The notes under the pieces were generated by a model. That model worked only from the letters and a program-made list of their open reading frames with translations, searched no databases and was not told where the DNA came from. This document shows, one piece after another, positions 9,619 to 59,203 of a stretch of 64,000 bases of DNA. The stretch lies in contig OZ024755.1 of the NCBI GenBank assembly GCA_964016885.1, positions 16,802,001 through 16,866,000 on the forward strand. The letters are read 5' to 3'. Source of the stretch: Eledone cirrhosa (taxonomy: Eukaryota). Within the stretch, counting starts at the first letter, position 1. Each line of letters opens with the position of its first letter. The translations under genes and the position numbers were made by a program.

Positions 9619-9816
9619 TGAGGATCGGCTGAAAAGTTCATAGGCTGACCAAGATACTCTCATCGAATGACCAAATGAGATCTATTTTTTAAAGTAGTCC
9701 CTGGAAAGAAACAATGCAGTTATTAATAAGAAGAGTTGAAATTAATGCATGTAAGATTTTACAGCTTGATCATCACTCCTTCATAGCCAGCCTATGAACT
9801 TTTCAGCCGACCCTAG
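9619..9816. mobile_element. ~200-bp mariner-type MITE; copies at 50530-50730, 51799-51991, 60906-61103, partial 61165-61260 and 23681-23708
   Basis: TA TSD and TIR consensus CGAGGGTCGGCTGAAAAGTTCATAGGCT. Confidence 0.82.
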
Positions 9817-12104: not shown

Positions 12105-12484
12105 GGTTTTTACCATGGTACCAGCTCTATCGCTTTACACTGTAGGCTGGGTGTATTTTACCATGGTACCAGTACCACCACTTTACATTGTGGGCTAGGA
12201 GTATTTTATCATGGTACCAGCACTACCACCTTACACTGTGGGCTGGGTGTATTTTATCATGGTACCAGCACTACCACCTTACACTGTGGGCTGGGTGTAT
12301 TTTATCATGGTACCAGCACTACCACCTTACACTGTGGGCTGGGTGTATTTTATCATGGTACCAGCACTACCACCTTACACTGTGGGCTGGGTGTATTTTA
12401 TCATGGTACCAGCACTACCACCTTACACTGTGGGCTGGGTGTATTTTATCATGACATCACACTTACACTTTCCAGTGTGGGCTG
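12105..12484. repeat. 48-bp minisatellite, ~7.5 copies
   Basis: Unit GGTGTATTTTATCATGGTACCAGCACTACCACCTTACACTGTGGGCTG; central copies identical. Confidence 0.95.
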
Positions 12485-26037: not shown

Positions 26038-26610
26038 AGTGGTAGGTTTAATCCCTCATATGGTAGACTTAATCATCGGAGGGTAGACTTAATCTATTGA
26101 TGGTAGACTTAATCTATCGGATGGTAGATTGATCCATCGGATGGTAGTCTTGATCTATCGGAGGGTAGACTTGATCCATTGGATGGTAGACTTAATCATC
26201 GGAGGGTAGACTTAATCTATTGATGGAAGACTTAATCTATCGGATGGTAGATTGATCCATCGGATGGTAGTCTTGATCTATCGGAGGGTAGACTTGATCC
26301 ATTGGATGGTAGACTTAATCCATCGGATGGTAGATTTAATCTATGGGATGGTAGACTTGATCTATTGGATGGTAGACTTAATCCATCGGATGGTAGATTT
26401 AATCTATGGGATGGTAGACTTGATCTATCGGAGGGTAGACTTGATCCATTGGATGGTAGACTTAATCCATCGGATGGTAGATTTAATCTATGGGATGGTA
26501 GACTTGATCTATCGGAGGGTAGACTTGATCTATTGGATGGTAGACTTAATCCAACTGACTTGATCTATTGGATGGTAGACTTGATCCATCGGAGGGTAGA
26601 GTTGATCTAT
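26038..26610. repeat. 20/21-bp minisatellite, ~27 copies
   Basis: Unit TGGTAGACTTAATCCATCGGA with variants. Confidence 0.95.
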
Positions 26611-26954
26611 GTCGACGTTCTGACGACTCAGTCAGTTCGCTACCTTAGAAGACATACTAGAGTCGAATATAATAATTTACTGCTCCCAATTGCTGTAAGT
26701 TGCCTTAATATCGGTGAGCAAGAGCTATAGGCCACGGAAGAAAGAAGGGGATAGGGTGATGGACTCTATGCCAAGGGTTATTGTGCGACACTACATAGGA
26801 AAGACTTTCTAATTCCAAGCTTATTTTATTACGAATTTGTAACATTAAAAATTCCTGTAAGGACATTTTGCAAAGCGAATTGATATTTAATTTACGATTT
26901 AATTTCTTGCTTTACTATCCATTTTAGTTTTCTTTTTTTTTTTTTGTCTTGCAG

Positions 26955-29386: not shown

Positions 29387-29419
<33 letters not shown>

Positions 29420-29514
29420 GGAACGAGTAGGACCCCGACGGCTGAGCTCAAGCCGTTTCGACGTCTAATTCTGGACTAAATGAAAATGTTTATTCTGGTA
29501 CATGAATAGCCGAG

Positions 29515-30286
<772 letters not shown>

Positions 30287-31618: not shown

Positions 31619-31621
31619 AAA

Positions 31622-32182
31622 ATGGTTCCATTTCCTAGGCTGCATTTCTTTATACCTGGCTTCGCCCCTCTAACAGCTCGAGGTAGCCAGCAATATAGAG
31701 CTTTGTCTGTAGCAGAACTTACACAGCAGATGTTTGATTCGAAGAATATGATGACTGCCTGTGATCCAAAATGCGGTCGCTACCTGACCGTTGCTACTAT
31801 ATTCCGAGGCCGTATGTCTATGAAGGAGGTTGATGATCATATCAAAAATATGCAGGATAAGAATAGTAGTTACTTTGTTGACTGGATTCCAGACAATATA
31901 ACTACAACCGTCTGAGATATTGTTCCGCGTGGATTTAAAATGTCTGGTGTATTTATGGGCAACAGTACGGCTATCCAAGAGTTATTTTTACGCATCGCTG
32001 ATCAGTTCATGGCTATGTTTAAGCGTAAAGCTTTCTTACATTGGTACACTGGAGAAGGCATGGATGAGATGGAATTAACAGAAGCTGAAAGTAACGTGCA
32101 TGATTTAATCTCTGAGTACCAGCAATACCAGGAAGCCACTGCTGAAGTGGACGGTGATTTTCAGAATGACGAAGGCGATTAA
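31622..32182 (+). pseudogene. TUBB: Beta-tubulin pseudogene, 5'-truncated, premature TGA at 31913-31915
   Basis: [10 protein letters not shown]...[16 protein letters not shown]...[22 protein letters not shown]. The Cys codon of TAVCDI is TGA. Begins directly after (TA)n. Shares ~310 nt of 3' UTR with the first copy. Confidence 0.93.
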
Positions 32183-32496: not shown

Positions 32497-32655
32497 CTCA
32501 CGCACCAGAGTATTCGATACCTAGGGTAGCAGAGTGGGTAATAGGAAAAGAGTCAGGACCCCGACGGCTGAGCACCGTCCTTTTCGACAGCTAGATCCGA
32601 ACTAGCTGTCGGAACGGCCGAGTCCCGCCGTCGGGGTCCTGACACTTTTCCTATT
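32497..32655 (-). mobile_element. Older subfamily of the hairpin-headed element; other pieces at 29420-29480 and 59051-59200
   Basis: Contains GGGTAATAGGAAAAGAGTCAGGACCCCGACGGCTGAGC...GCCGTCGGGGTCCTGACACTTTTCCTA. Confidence 0.75.
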
Positions 32656-42435: not shown

Positions 42436-42508
42436 GTCCCTGTAGCGCAGTGGATAGCGCGCTGGACTTCTAATCCAGAGGCCGTGGGTTCGAATCCCAC
42501 TAGGGATG
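42436..42508 (+). tRNA. tRNA-Arg(TCT), intronless, copy 1 (G7:U66 variant)
   Basis: 73-nt cloverleaf, anticodon arm CTGGA-CTTCTAA-TCCAG, B-box GGTTCGAATCC, T8 terminator downstream. Confidence 0.96.
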
Positions 42509-42869
42509 ATGGTAACATTTTTTTTAAATTTTCATTTCTAGTAAATTTTATATTAAATGGAGAGGTAACATATATAGAAAGGAGAAAGAAATAATTGAGC
42601 TTTTCTAAGAGGGACAATACAACATTAGCTTACCTCGGAATATATTTGGTTGTAACACCAACTATATAAAGTATTATATTTTAATTATATCAGGTGGATA
42701 AATGTTATTACGAGAGAATATTTTCTGGCAAAGAGAATATTTCTAATGTAAAATTTCTAAGAAAAAAATGTTTTTAAATAGATCAGAAAATTATAATATG
42801 ATCGATTTAATATATAATTTATTACAATTGAAAATAAAATAACAAAAAAAAAAAAAAGATAAAAATTCT

Positions 42870-42942
42870 CATCCCTGGTGGGATTCGAACCCACGGCCTC
42901 TGGATTAGAAGTCCAGCGCGCTATCCGCTGCGCTACAGGGAC
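42870..42942 (-). tRNA. tRNA-Arg(TCT) copy 2
   Basis: Full reverse-complement cloverleaf, D-loop AGCGGATA, T-run downstream. Confidence 0.96.
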
Positions 42943-43287
42943 TTTACAACATAGGCTTAGCTCCAAATTTATTTGACCGCAACATCACCTATATACTGTA
43001 TTACAATACATAGCTATAGACAAACAGCAATAACAAAATACATTTTATTTAGAACTATACAAATACAATCTTGGAAATAAGCTCTCAGCCATGAAAATAT
43101 AATGTCTATTTGAAGATATGAAGAAGGGGAAAAGATTTTAGTTAAAATATAATTTATTGGAATTGATAATATATAAAAAAAATTCATCATCATCGTTAAT
43201 ATAATATTTCTAAGAAGAAATTAAATCAGAAAATTAAAATATAACTGATTTAATATATATTATTAAAATTTGAAAAAATTGCGACTT

Positions 43288-43360
43288 CATCCCTGGTGGG
43301 ATTCGAACCCACGGCCTCTGGATTAGAAGTCCAGCGCGCTATCCACTGCGCTACAGGGAC
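43288..43360 (-). tRNA. tRNA-Arg(TCT) copy 3
   Basis: Full cloverleaf, D-loop AGTGGATA. Confidence 0.96.
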
Positions 43361-43731
43361 AGTACAACTACAGGTTGCCTTCAAATTTATTTGACCGTAA
43401 CACCACCTATATACTGTATTACAATACATAACTATAGCCAAACAACAGTAACAACAGTAACAACACATCTTATTTAGAACTGTACAAATACAATCTTGGA
43501 AATAAGCTCTCAGCCATGAAAATATAATGTCTATTTGAAGATATGAAGAAGGGAAAAAGAATTTAGTTAACATATAATTTATTGGAACTGAAAATATGTA
43601 AAGAAAAATCATCATCATCATCATCATCGTTGATGTAATATTTCTAAGAAGAAATTAAATCAGAAAATTAGAATATGACTGATTTAATATATACGTTATT
43701 GGAATTGAAAATGAAAAAAAAAATGTAACTT

Positions 43732-43804
43732 CATCCCTGGTGGGATTCGAACCCACGGCCTCTGGATTAGAAGTCCAGCGCGCTATCCGCTGCGCTACAG
43801 GGAC
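43732..43804 (-). tRNA. tRNA-Arg(TCT) copy 4
   Basis: Full cloverleaf, D-loop AGCGGATA. Confidence 0.96.
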
Positions 43805-44095
43805 ATTACAACATCAGGTTATCTCAGAATTTATTTGACCGCAATACCACCTAATTACTGTATTACAGCCCGTAAATTTAGACAAACAGCAGTAATAACA
43901 TACATGTTTAGACCAATACAAATACAATCTTGGAAATAAACTCTTATTCATGAAAATACATTGATTCTTTGAACATGTGAGGTAGGGAATCACATTTTAA
44001 TTATTACAGGTGAATAAATTGTTTATTACGAGAGATAATTTCATTTATAACATGTGAATGATTAGAATATGACTGATTTTATATATATATATATA

Positions 44096-44287
44096 GGAAC
44101 GAGTAGGACCCCGACGGCTGAGCTCAAGCCGTTTCGACGGCTAATTCTTAGTCCAGAATTAGCCGTCGAAACGGCTTGAGCTCAGCCGTCGGGGTCCTAC
44201 TCGTTCCTATTACCCACTCTACTACCCTAACTATTGAGTACTTTGGTGCGTTATGGTCCACCTGGTTCCTTACCACATTTCCTTCGT
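44096..44287 (+). mobile_element. Hairpin-headed 192-bp non-autonomous element in (TA)n (Penelope-like pLTR derivative)
   Basis: Perfect 56-bp arms at 44093-44148 and 44155-44210, unique tail with TATTGAGTAC, (TA)n on both sides. Confidence 0.85.
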
Positions 44288-44352
44288 TATATATATATAT
44301 ATTTATATATATCTACTATAAAAAAATCAAAACCCAAAAAATAAAGTAACTT

Positions 44353-44425
44353 CATCCCTGGTGGGATTCGAACCCACGGCCTCTGGATTAGAAGTCCAGC
44401 GCGCTATCCGCTGCGCTACAGGGAC
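44353..44425 (-). tRNA. tRNA-Arg(TCT) copy 5
   Basis: Full cloverleaf, D-loop AGCGGATA. Confidence 0.96.
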
Positions 44426-44769
44426 ATTGCACCAACGGATTAGCACAACATTTATTTGACCGTAACACCACCTATATACTGTATTACAATACATAGCTAT
44501 AGACAAACAGCAATAACAACATACATTTTATTTAGAACTATACAAATACAATCTTGGAAATAAGCTCTCAGCCATGAAAATATAATGTCTATTTGAAGAT
44601 ATGAAGAAGGGGAAAAGATTTTAGTTAAAATATAATTTATTGGAATTGATAATATATAAAAAAAATCATCATCATCGTTAATGTAATATTTCTAAGAAGA
44701 AATTAAATCAGAAAATTAAAATATAACTGATTTAATATATATTATTAAAATTGGAAAAAAATCTAACTT

Positions 44770-44842
44770 CATCCCTGGTGGGATTCGAACCCACGGCCTC
44801 TGGATTAGAAGTCCAGCGCGCTATCCACTGCGCTACAGGGAC
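44770..44842 (-). tRNA. tRNA-Arg(TCT) copy 6
   Basis: Full cloverleaf, D-loop AGTGGATA. Confidence 0.96.
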
Positions 44843-45210
44843 AGTACAACTACAGGTTGCCTTCAAATTTATTTGACCGAAACGCCACCTATATACTGTA
44901 TTACAATACATAACTATAGCCAAACAACAGTAACAACAGTAACAACACATCTTATTTAGAACTGTACAAATACAATCTTGGAAATAAGCTCTCAGCCATG
45001 AAAATATAATGTCTATTTGAAGATATGAAGAAGGGAAAAAGAATTTAGTTAACATATAATTTATTGGAACTGAAAATATGTAAAGAAAAATCATCATCAT
45101 CATCATCGTTGATGTAATATTTCTAAGAAGAAATTAAATCAGAAAATTAGAATATGACTGATTTAATATATACGTTATTGGAATTGAAAATGAAAAAAAA
45201 AATGTAACTT

Positions 45211-45283
45211 CATCCCTGGTGGGATTCGAACCCACGGCCTCTGGATTAGAAGTCCAGCGCGCTATCCGCTGCGCTACAGGGAC
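45211..45283 (-). tRNA. tRNA-Arg(TCT) copy 7
   Basis: Full cloverleaf, D-loop AGCGGATA. Confidence 0.96.
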
Positions 45284-45574
45284 ATTACAACATCGGGTTA
45301 TCTCAGAATTTATTTGACCGCAATACCACCTAATTACTGTATTACAGCCCGTAAATTTAGACAAACAGCAGTAATAACATACATGTTTAGACCAATACAA
45401 ATACAATCTTGGAAATAAACTCTTATTCATGAAAATACATTGATTCTTTGAACATGTGAGGTAGGGAATCACATTTTAATTATTACAGGTGAATAAATTG
45501 TTTATTACGAGAGATAATTTCATTTATAACAAGTGAATGATTAGAATATGACTGATTTTATATATATATATATA

Positions 45575-45766
45575 GGAACGAGTAGGACCCCGACGGCTGA
45601 GCTCAAGCCGTTTCGACGGCTAATTCTTAGTCCAGAATTAGCCGTCGAAACGGCTTGAGCTCAGCCGTCGGGGTCCTACTCGTTCCTATTACCCACTCTA
45701 CTACCCTAACTATTGAGTACTTTGGTGCGTTATGGTCCACCTGGTTCCTTACCACATTTCCTTCGT
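45575..45766 (+). mobile_element. Hairpin-headed element, identical copy made by array duplication
   Basis: Same sequence as 44096-44287 at offset 1479. Confidence 0.85.
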
Positions 45767-45831
45767 TATATATATATATATTTATATATATCTACTATAA
45801 AAAAATCAAAACCCAAAAAATAAAGTAACTT

Positions 45832-45904
45832 CATCCCTGGTGGGATTCGAACCCACGGCCTCTGGATTAGAAGTCCAGCGCGCTATCCGCTGCGCTACAG
45901 GGAC
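45832..45904 (-). tRNA. tRNA-Arg(TCT) copy 8
   Basis: Full cloverleaf, D-loop AGCGGATA. Confidence 0.96.
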
Positions 45905-46249
45905 ATTGCACCAACGGATTAGCACAACATTTATTTGACCGTAACACCACCTATATACTGTATTACAATACATAGCTATAGACAAACAGCAATAACAACA
46001 TACATTTTATTTAGAACTATACAAATACAATCTTGGAAATAAGCTCTCAGCCATGAAAATATAATGTCTATTTGAAGATATGAAGAAGGGGAAAAGATTT
46101 TAGTTAAAATATAATTTATTGGAATTGATAATATATAAAAAAAATCATCATCATCGTTAATGTAATATTTCTAAGAAGAAATTAAATCAGAAAATTAAAA
46201 TATAACTGATTTAATATATATTATTAAAATTGGAAAAAAAGTCTAACTT

Positions 46250-46322
46250 CATCCCTGGTGGGATTCGAACCCACGGCCTCTGGATTAGAAGTCCAGCGCG
46301 CTATCCACTGCGCTACAGGGAC
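46250..46322 (-). tRNA. tRNA-Arg(TCT) copy 9
   Basis: Full cloverleaf, D-loop AGTGGATA. Confidence 0.96.
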
Positions 46323-46693
46323 AGTACAACTACAGGTTGCCTTCAAATTTATTTGACCGTAACACCACCTATATACTGTATTACAATACATAACTATAGC
46401 CAAACAACAGTAACAACAGTAACAACACATCTTATTTAGAACTGTACAAATACAATCTTGGAAATAAGCTCTCAGCCATGAAAATATAATGTCTATTTGA
46501 AGATATGAAGAAGGGAAAAAGAATTTAGTTAACATATAATTTATTGGAACTGAAAATATGTAAAGAAAAATCATCATCATCATCATCATCGTTGATGTAA
46601 TATTTCTAAGAAGAAATTAAATCAGAAAATTAGAATATGACTGATTTAATATATACGTTATTGGAATTGAAAATGAAAAAAAAAATGTAACTT

Positions 46694-46766
46694 CATCCCT
46701 GGTGGGATTCGAACCCACGGCCTCTGGATTAGAAGTCCAGCGCGCTATCCGCTGCGCTACAGGGAC
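46694..46766 (-). tRNA. tRNA-Arg(TCT) copy 10
   Basis: Full cloverleaf, D-loop AGCGGATA. Confidence 0.96.
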
Positions 46767-47032
46767 ATTACAACGTCCTTTAACCATGGAATTTATTTGA
46801 CTGTAACAGCAACTATATACTGTATTACAATACGTAAATTTAGACAAACAGCAGTAATAACATACATGTTTAGACCAATACAAATACAATCTTGGAAATA
46901 CATTCATGAAAATACAATGATTTTTTTTAACATGTGAGGTAGGGAATCACATTTTAATTATTACAGGTGAATAAATTGTTTATTAAGAGAGATAATTTTA
47001 TTTATAACAAGTGAATGATTAGAATATGACTG

Positions 47033-47081
<49 letters not shown>

Positions 47082-47158
47082 ATATGCATGTATGTGTGTG
47101 TGTATATATATATATATCTACTATGAAAAAAGCAGAAACAAAAAAAATAAAGTAACTT

Positions 47159-47231
47159 CATCCCTGGTGGGATTCGAACCCACGGCCTCTGGATTAGAAG
47201 TCCAGCGCGCTATCCACTGCGCTACAGGAAC
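47159..47231 (-). tRNA. tRNA-Arg(TCT) copy 11 (U3:G70 variant)
   Basis: Full cloverleaf; acceptor 5' strand GTTCCTG instead of GTCCCTG. Confidence 0.93.
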
Positions 47232-47483
47232 ATTGCAACATTGGCTTACCTAAGAATTTATTTGGCTGTAACACCAACTATATAAGGTATTATATTTTAA
47301 TTATATCAGGTGGATAAATGTTATTACGAGAGATTATATTCTGGCAAAGAGAATATTTGTAATGTAAAATTTCTAAGAAAAAAATGTTTTTAAATAGATC
47401 AGAAAATTATAATATGATCGATTTAATATATAATTTATTACAATTGAAAATAAAATAACAAAAAAAAAAAAGAAAAAAATTCT

Positions 47484-47556
47484 CATCCCTGGTGGGATTC
47501 GAACCCACGGCCTCTGGATTAGAAGTCCAGCGCGCTATCCGCTGCGCTACAGGGAC
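47484..47556 (-). tRNA. tRNA-Arg(TCT) copy 12
   Basis: Full cloverleaf, D-loop AGCGGATA. Confidence 0.96.
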
Positions 47557-50757: not shown

Positions 50758-50836
<79 letters not shown>

Positions 50837-50837
<1 letters not shown>

Positions 50838-50994
50838 CGAAGGAAATGAGGTAAGGAACCAGGTGGACCATAACGCACCAAAGTACTCAATACTTAGGGT
50901 AGTAGAGTGGGTAATAGGACGGCTAATTCTGGACTCAGTCCAGAATTAGCCGTCGAAACGGCTTGAGCTCAGCCGTCAGGGTCTTACTGGTTCC
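50837..50994 (-). mobile_element. Hairpin-headed element, one arm internally deleted
   Basis: Reverse complement of the 44096 family, flanked by (TA)n. Confidence 0.8.
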
Positions 50995-51326
50995 TATATA
51001 AATATATATATATATATATGATATTAATAAATGGAAACTATATTTATAAAACCATATTTATTCTATTATATATATTTCAAGGGTACCTAAACTTTGGTAC
51101 GCACACATCAGATAAAATACAAAGTTTGTTTTATAAATATTGACATATCCAGGAAGGAGATCTTAACGGTTCAAGTTTTTCCTGGATAGAAAATGTAAGT
51201 GACATAGTCACTACTTTAAAACTCATAGCGAATGGTCTTCTAAATGTTTTTAATTAAACACACAGTATATTGCCAAATATACTATACATACATTCATGTA
51301 TATATCGCTATTTCAGAACACCAATA

Positions 51327-51384
<58 letters not shown>

Positions 51385-51386
<2 letters not shown>

Positions 51387-51610
51387 AACAAGTAAGACCC
51401 CGACGGCTGAGCTCAAGCCGTTTCGACGGCTAATTCTGTACTGAAATCAATGCATGCAAGATTTCACAGCTTTAGTACAGAATTAGCCGTCGAAACGGCT
51501 TGAGCTCAGCCGTCGGGGTCTTACTTGTTCCTATTACCCACTCTACTACCCTAAGTATTGAGTACTTTGGTGCGTTATGGTCCACCTGGTTCCTTACCAC
51601 ATTTCTTTCG

Positions 51611-51611
<1 letters not shown>
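51385..51611 (+). mobile_element. Hairpin-headed element with foreign DNA in the loop
   Basis: Same family, flanked by (TA)n; loop carries 30 nt identical to 50651-50680. Confidence 0.85.
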
Positions 51612-51664
<53 letters not shown>

Positions 51665-58982: not shown

Positions 58983-59052
<70 letters not shown>

Positions 59053-59203
59053 CAAAGAGGGTGTGGTAAGATACCAGGTGGACAATAACGCATTAGAGTA
59101 CTCAATACTTAGGGTAGTAGAGTGGGTAGTATGAAAAGAGTCAAGACCCCGACGGCTGAGCACCGGATGTAGCTGTCGAAACGGCCGGAATCTTTTCATA
59201 TAC

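Follow-up and report, generated by a model that had tools for sequence, protein, structure and literature searches.

A hairpin occupies positions 44093..44290 of the window, the whole 64,000-nucleotide (nt) stretch of Eledone cirrhosa DNA analysed here. Its perfect 56-base pair (bp) inverted arms (44093–44148 and 44155–44210) are separated by a 6-nt spacer, an arrangement with a chance expectation in the window of ~1e-28, and 78 unique nt continue from the right arm, with a (TA)n tract on either side of the whole (Table 1). We number positions relative to the predicted hammerhead cut, C17 being −1 (window 44190) and G1.1 being +1 (44191). The right arm carries GAAA at 44168, then a 6-bp stem III, the GTC triplet at 44188–44190 and a stem I strand, GGGGTCC, from 44191. 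This layout, and its exact reverse complement in the left arm, had been described in a sequence-only reading of the locus, and both are confirmed here. The core strand and the stem II 5′ strand are absent, the arms stopping at −36 and −42, and the 6-nt 'loop' is a direct-arm stretch absent from the opposite arm, with a 1-nt microhomology at 44148.

The long hairpin had been thought to supply stems I and II of the ribozyme. RNA spanning both arms is instead predicted to fold as a 56-bp duplex that pairs with and masks the entire half ribozyme. Because this duplex hides the half ribozyme, the proposed cutting in trans is unlikely for a two-armed RNA; double-stranded RNA output from the hairpins, proposed there as a source of siRNA, is possible. 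A search of the 64-kb window against Rfam returned tRNAs only and no hammerhead. For reasons given below, the hairpin is almost certainly the smallest form in which a young Hydra-clade Penelope-like retroelement (PLE) of 3.5 kb inserts. It has no catalytic core strand and likely represents a dead-end product.

The window contains six independent insertion sites of the family (29419, 32500, 44093, 50836, 51384 and 59040), in agreement with the earlier estimate of at least five, with the copy at 45572 excluded as a duplicate. The older subfamily had been said to keep ACGGC/GCCGT, which is true of the copy at 32543, but the copy at 59140 has internal deletions and keeps only parts. Twelve tRNA-Arg(TCT) genes are clustered at 42436–47556, where a 1,479-bp tandem duplication carried the 44093 insertion; a homologous TA tract without an insertion lies in the same cluster, at 47022–47120. 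At the junction of the 51384 copy, ~30 nt (51440–51475) resemble the window at ~9735–9770 and were likely captured during joining. The 32500 copy lies ~600 bp downstream of an open frame on the forward strand (~31620–31915) whose translation resembles a beta-tubulin exon. Minisatellite-like tandem repeats at ~12150–12450 and 26251–26730, with periods of ~48 nt and 21 nt, are visible as repeating translations.

Table 1 Features of the 44093 hairpin and related insertions in the window
Feature	Position	Strand	Remarks
(TA)n target, left	44080..44092	.	Seen in sequence
Inverted arm without tail	44093..44148	-	Parent positions +20 to −36
Direct arm	44149..44210	+	Parent positions −42 to +20
A(−41), TYAGT motif of loop II	44150	+	Putative transcription start; motif kept in all subfamilies; no extra G in the 44093 copy
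3′ half of type I hammerhead	44160..44197	+	Stem II 3′ strand, GAAA, stem III, GTC triplet (predicted cut after 44190), stem I 3′ strand
78-nt tail	44211..44288	+	Parent +21 to +98; same kind as the start of the parent 5′ untranslated region (UTR); locus L100 runs from tail to UTR to ATG
(TA)n target, right	44289..44313	.	Seen in sequence
Identical copy of 44093 hairpin	45572..45769	+	Tandem duplication of tRNA-Arg array unit, same flanks; not an independent insertion
Solo tail-less arm	29417..29516	-	Reaches about −77; both stem II strands present, ends at core
Older-subfamily hairpin	32500..32655	-	Shortened tail
Hairpin with internal deletion	50836..50997	-	Arms both reach −41, joined by a single G/C linker
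Hairpin with ~30 nt of captured sequence between arms	51382..51612	+	
Older-subfamily insertion	59040..59200	-	Deletions in both arms

Parent element and its hammerhead

A 33-nt pattern extending the hairpin arm upstream has 3,963 matches in the genome, many of which form inverted pairs 0.2–4.2 kb apart. At 20 inverted-pair loci the outer ends are those of the hairpins and surround an open reading frame (ORF), and simple two-armed long loci carry the tail on one outer end and none on the other. At one such locus (L100) the tail leads through a 5′ UTR and an ATG into a 719-residue ORF. The model of the encoded protein (pLDDT 92.5) has telomerase reverse transcriptase (TERT) as its best Foldseek match (E 2e-8), whereas sequence searches of Pfam and the PDB with the parent protein gave no match, the Pfam GIY-YIG match being confined to a single homologue, P0001. 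The protein contains the motifs RWR, DKT, YRDD, CxCx5C, VIY..YIG, CxxC and CxH, which are conserved across 96 aligned sequences: YRDD is invariant (96/96), the RW(K/R) position has K in 68 and R in 25, and the C-terminal GIY-YIG-type nuclease (VIY...YIG) retains its Y and G in 94. In the parent the linker CxCx5C reads CNCx5C, CxxC reads CNLC and CxH reads CKH, a single cysteine lies between VIY and YIG, and there is no CCHH.

The tandem unit of the parent is 3,531 bp. Many of the 150 copies scored are 98–100% identical, and some have open frames of at least 784 codons or stand in 3,531-bp tandems, so the family is young. Parent loci include a partial tandem (pLTR) and an inverted 5′-truncated copy, and TA flanks are present on at least one side at 30 of 30 loci, nearly always on both. 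Judged by its motifs and (TA)n targets, with named Hydra sequences compared by eye, the parent is almost certainly a Hydra-clade PLE; an initial assignment to Nematis or Neptune was dropped given the published description of the Hydra clade (PMC8557442). Hydra-clade PLEs insert in (TA)n, and PLEs typically carry an inverted truncated copy and a tail on one side only (PMC8557442); the window element represents this anatomy at its smallest size.

Ahead of GAAA, the parent carries ACCCC, followed by TTGANAA and then by the strand that pairs in stem II, which complete a type I hammerhead fold: stems I–III surround a core with G10.1-C11.1, GAAA and UH, and N7 takes A, C, G and T. The hammerhead core is reached by 7,446 long arms, the first 100 of which comprise, by hand count, 76 with U3-A8, 22 with C3.A8, 2 with U3.G8 and none with C3-G8. 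Thus, a parent with the missing half exists, as predicted by the sequence-only reading, but its core is TTGANAA and not the expected CTGANGA. A search for a CTGANGA parent gave 53 genome matches at 4–34 nt spacing, which were mixed junction by-products; the real spacing is ~54 nt and the core is the variant. U3-A8 hammerheads are known from Schistosoma PLEs (PMC4209133), and every Hydra hammerhead in the list of Craig et al. has CTGANGA (PMC8557442).

Over 26 copies, 93.8% of 520 cells in the hammerhead fold are paired and three stem II pairs are changed on both sides; this covariation represents few events between subfamilies, the patterns used to choose the rows fix part of the core, and a pair-count measure was no better than shuffles (360 of 500). 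The older subfamily has an unchanged core and an altered stem II. Stem III remains paired across subfamilies (94.6% of cells), so the conservation that had been anticipated for it holds. The constrained hammerhead fold lies 1.1–8.8 kcal/mol above the minimum in six copies, and the competing fold is often a swap of two repeated 5-nt strands. At L102:2988-3130 and L071:1860-2004, stems II and III share such strands and the swapped, inactive fold is predicted to be slightly more stable, a possible switch. Rfam gave no match for a parent hammerhead copy, and only below-threshold hairpin matches for five loci. The subfamily of the window hairpin contains both cores (U3-A8 in 6, C3.A8 in 9), and at loci L061, L070, L108, L130 and L146 a young lineage that includes part of this subfamily carries the C3.A8 mismatch and still spread. 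On the evidence of fold and pairing, we regard the right arm as the 3′ half of a genuine hammerhead fold, the parent of which has a variant core.

Arm ends and hairpin junctions

The genome contains at least 11,360 hairpins that match two exact 14-nt anchors. By hand count, the first 50 have 39 distinct junctions, that of the 44093 copy occurring once, so the hairpins are made anew and not copied. Identical junction types recur across different subfamilies, and some junctions contain short local duplications or captured sequence, as would be expected of end-joining. The subfamily segment common to both arms agrees in 56 of 73 hairpins, against a shuffled mean of 14; in the remaining 17 the difference is mostly a single base. 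Long ORF-bearing copies fall into the same four main types as the hairpins, and arm lengths grade continuously up to full ORF copies. An assembly artefact is ruled out by distinct flanks, independently mutated arms and varied junctions. One locus (L189:2653-2777) has a hairpin of two tail-less arms, indicating that start-site use can vary. A further repeat, with no Rfam match at threshold, is joined at the end zone to arms of different subfamilies (L031 and L053, also L034 and L043, and in the flank of L323).

We determined where arms end in 105 arms not chosen by junction, taken from sampled sequence totalling 1.02 Mb, the window among it, and from neighbours in other loci. Sixty end at −29 to −46, 2 at −47 to −77 and 17 further, while the other 26 are shorter or have internal deletions; a further tally of arm ends agreed with this distribution. 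Short arms stop at or just inside two A's of loop II, −41 and −45 from the cleavage site, and the upstream edge of this sharp end zone is a TYAGT motif that is conserved within the otherwise variable loop II. Many arms fall short of −41 by as much as 12 nt, so that run-off from this position would need trimming. The 44093 copy itself has arm ends at −42/−43 and −36, with no extra G.

At the end zone, some arms carry a base that the parents do not have. Arms reaching A(−41) number 25,357, with TTY as the next bases in 14,052 (a count inflated by matches of the opposite arm), and 4,854 of the 25,357 have G before A(−41), where parents have T or C. Among the first 40 G-bearing arms, 25 G's are unexplained by the opposite arm (28 by script, three more being explained on inspection). 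Both arms reach −41 in 2,325 hairpins, and in a hand count of the first 50 the cap-type base is present on 21 arm ends, against 3 for the other non-parental base (p 3e-4); it occurs on both arms in six of these hairpins, and at −45 on 9 ends. Unselected arms that end at −41 have the G in 7 of 9 cases. In L1, copying of a cap leaves an extra G (PMC11702581); an internal promoter is known for Penelope (PMC2377424), and both internal promoters and initiator-like motifs occur in PLE pLTRs (PMC2377424; PMC3846280). We infer that transcription starts at A(−41) and A(−45) in hammerhead loop II. A splice acceptor at the loop II AG is ruled out, as the AG is kept in the arms and there is no shared upstream exon. 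For a start site inside a PLE hammerhead, or for hairpins made by cap run-off, no description was found in the literature searched, which comprised titles and the starts of abstracts, most subscription journals and Repbase lying outside its scope; the family or its short form may already be catalogued in Repbase.

Explanations for the hairpins

The best explanation, which we hold to be probable, is a minimal head-to-head PLE insertion formed by capped run-off and joining of two short cDNAs. The element's enzyme would nick both strands of a (TA)n tract, and reverse transcription would start on the element RNA at two internal sites, corresponding to the observed ends at +20 and +98 and lying 60 and 140 nt downstream of the start. 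The enzyme would then copy back to the likely capped 5′ end of the RNA inside hammerhead loop II and run off, after which the two short cDNAs, trimmed by up to ~12 nt, would be end-joined by the host. Double-strand cutting and two internal reverse transcription start sites that define the tail have been described for a PLE in vitro (PMC11167929), the tail lying between the two sites. The hairpin would accordingly contain half a ribozyme because run-off occurs at a capped start inside the hammerhead, and we consider this capped run-off itself probable. Long and full-length copies would likely derive from another class of RNA, one that extends across the entire hammerhead.

The same parent RNA could also give hairpins if reverse transcriptase stalled at the folded hammerhead or at a bound protein and the second arm arose by fold-back self-priming, as proposed for palindromes at inverted PLE junctions (PMC3846280). 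The end zone does sit just past stem II, and the two arms of one hairpin share subfamily type and have similar lengths. However, stalling leaves the non-parental G at two fixed A's unexplained, and arms that pass −46 seldom stop in the remaining fold (2/19). Self-priming is further at odds with the G on both arms in 6 of 50 hairpins, five of the six having non-palindromic linkers, and with the kilobase arms of unequal length in long elements; we consider this combination unlikely. A SINE-like cycle, in which short loci are transcribed from an internal promoter such as that of Penelope (PMC2377424) and re-inserted in trans with the junction rebuilt each time, would account for a rare tail variant of the 44093 hairpin that occurs at six sites with six junctions and in no long copy among the loci examined. 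Yet hairpin subtypes are those of the long copies, zone-ending templates carry sequence beyond the tail that short loci do not have, and the Poseidon protein required RNA inside the ORF (PMC11167929), which together make such a cycle very unlikely.

In the model of the sequence-only reading, template switching had converted a ribozyme to a fixed palindrome, which is mobile as such. High copy number (at least 11,360) and the 94–100% identity of the 40 best matches to the window hairpin are what a self-propagating palindrome would give, but the varied junctions (39 distinct in 50), the recurrence of junction types across subfamilies, the correspondence of hairpin subtypes to long ORF-bearing copies and the gradation of arm lengths up to copies with a full ORF speak against it, and we find it highly improbable. 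Inverted arms, one of them subterminal, and TA flanks also recall a non-autonomous DNA transposon with asymmetric inverted repeats, of the MITE or Helentron type. This is scarcely credible for an element whose long parent encodes a reverse transcriptase and no transposase and whose ends map to a PLE terminus and tail. Capped run-off and joining thus remains our preferred account, and if it is true the hairpins form a DNA record of how PLEs copy themselves.

Long copies and related systems

A single template class starting at −41 predicts full-length copies that begin there. None of 20 full-ORF copies begins in the end zone, and neither does any of 18 further copies with an ORF of at least 1.5 kb (four of them from one array). 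The latter come from the first 30 of the 349 loci at which tail and UTR are joined. As no long ORF copy begins in the end zone, a second template class is needed. Furthermore, in 11 distinct elements with a visible partner of the long arm, the partner also passes the end zone (60 rows were checked, 45 of them uninformative, 43 with no partner in view and 2 with a TA run between; four script labels were corrected on inspection). Because long arms pair only with long arms, a single template class would supply both arms of an element. It is therefore likely that there are two classes of RNA template, among them possibly a ribozyme-made circle, and that long copies use RNA spanning the whole hammerhead as a circle, a long multimer or by efficient strand transfer.

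Five junctions in four loci lie at −1 or +1, among at most 19 non-zone junctions in the first 30 of the 349 loci (p ~4e-5, post hoc), whereas none of the 105 unselected arms ends at the cleavage site and there is no general peak there. These junctions suggest occasional hammerhead cleavage in vivo; in published Anolis RNA reads no ends were found at the cleavage site (PMC11167929). When a template jump departs from the zone or from +1, its landing point is mostly within +160 to +213, around the start codon, and in one case at +917, so templates ending at the zone or at +1 include UTR and ORF sequence. Jumps landing at +160 to +213 were seen at L323/L324, L325, L326, L328, L339, L346 and L350, and L323 has 257-bp head-to-tail mini-units with identical junctions.

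We tentatively consider that the element has two RNA forms, the capped RNA giving hairpins and RNA cut by the U3-A8 ribozyme and closed as a 3.5-kb circle giving full-length tandems. The cap G at −41/−45, the junctions at the cleavage site and the lack of any long ORF copy from the start site could be the footprints of these two forms, an attribution that we would not press, and a circular second template, though possible, is somewhat doubtful. If the two forms exist, they would be evidence that PLE hammerheads play their proposed circular-template role in vivo, the 5′ end of capped transcripts would be unable to self-cleave, and tens of thousands of hairpins would be dead ends. PLE integration and the role of the hammerhead are open questions (PMC8557442, PMC11167929, PMC4209133), and a young, abundant family gives base-exact predictions for them: starts at −41/−45, reverse transcription starts at +20/+98, cleavage at +1 and, for the second template, no ends at all at the start site.

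The element shares with the Hydra clade described by Craig et al. (2021; PMC8557442) the C-terminal nuclease, RW(K/R), DKT, the CxCx5C linker, CxxC, CxH and the absence of CCHH, as well as (TA)n targets, partial tandems, an inverted 5′-truncated copy, a tail at one end and a hammerhead of like layout close to the 3′ end. It differs in its 3.5-kb unit (generally <3 kb in that description), its 78-nt tail (30–40 nt) and its hammerhead, which has a U3-A8 or C3.A8 core, a long loop II and a 6-bp stem III, whereas those listed have CTGANGA. Hydra-1_Obim is, judged by eye, a different family from the parent. The Poseidon element PAc, studied in vitro by Frangieh et al. (2024; PMC11167929), similarly cuts and extends both target strands in AT-rich DNA, with two internal reverse transcription start sites downstream of the hammerhead cut defining the tail. 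However, PAc belongs to a different clade, the passages of that study considered here describe no transcription start, cap mark or run-off hairpins, and no RNA ends were found there at the cleavage site, whereas five DNA junctions start there in the present family.

Core covariation of the U3-A8 type in a PLE is shared with the Schistosoma Cercyon elements, for which Cervera and de la Pena (2014; PMC4209133) noted opposite-strand motif pairs 100–700 bp apart and proposed a circular-RNA model; the Cercyon motifs are minimal and dimer-type, whereas stem III of the present hammerhead is stable and the start site likely splits the motif. In L1 twin priming, two target-primed cDNAs are likewise joined in inverted orientation and complete 5′ ends carry an extra G (PMC11702581), but the L1 segments are adjacent and barely overlap, whereas here both arms copy the same 55–60 nt near the RNA 5′ end. 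Animal non-LTR retrozymes (bioRxiv 10.64898/2026.07.22.740005) are also short hammerhead-related derivatives of PLE pLTRs; they are tandem and contain whole ribozymes, in contrast to the inverted, coreless hairpins rebuilt each time here. For annotation, this means that at least 11,360 perfect hairpins resembling MITEs or microRNA precursors would be by-products of a retroelement, and they may be a source of double-stranded RNA. Near-perfect hairpins at L043:1380-1480 and L034:1863-1942 are unrelated to this family and score below threshold on microRNA models.
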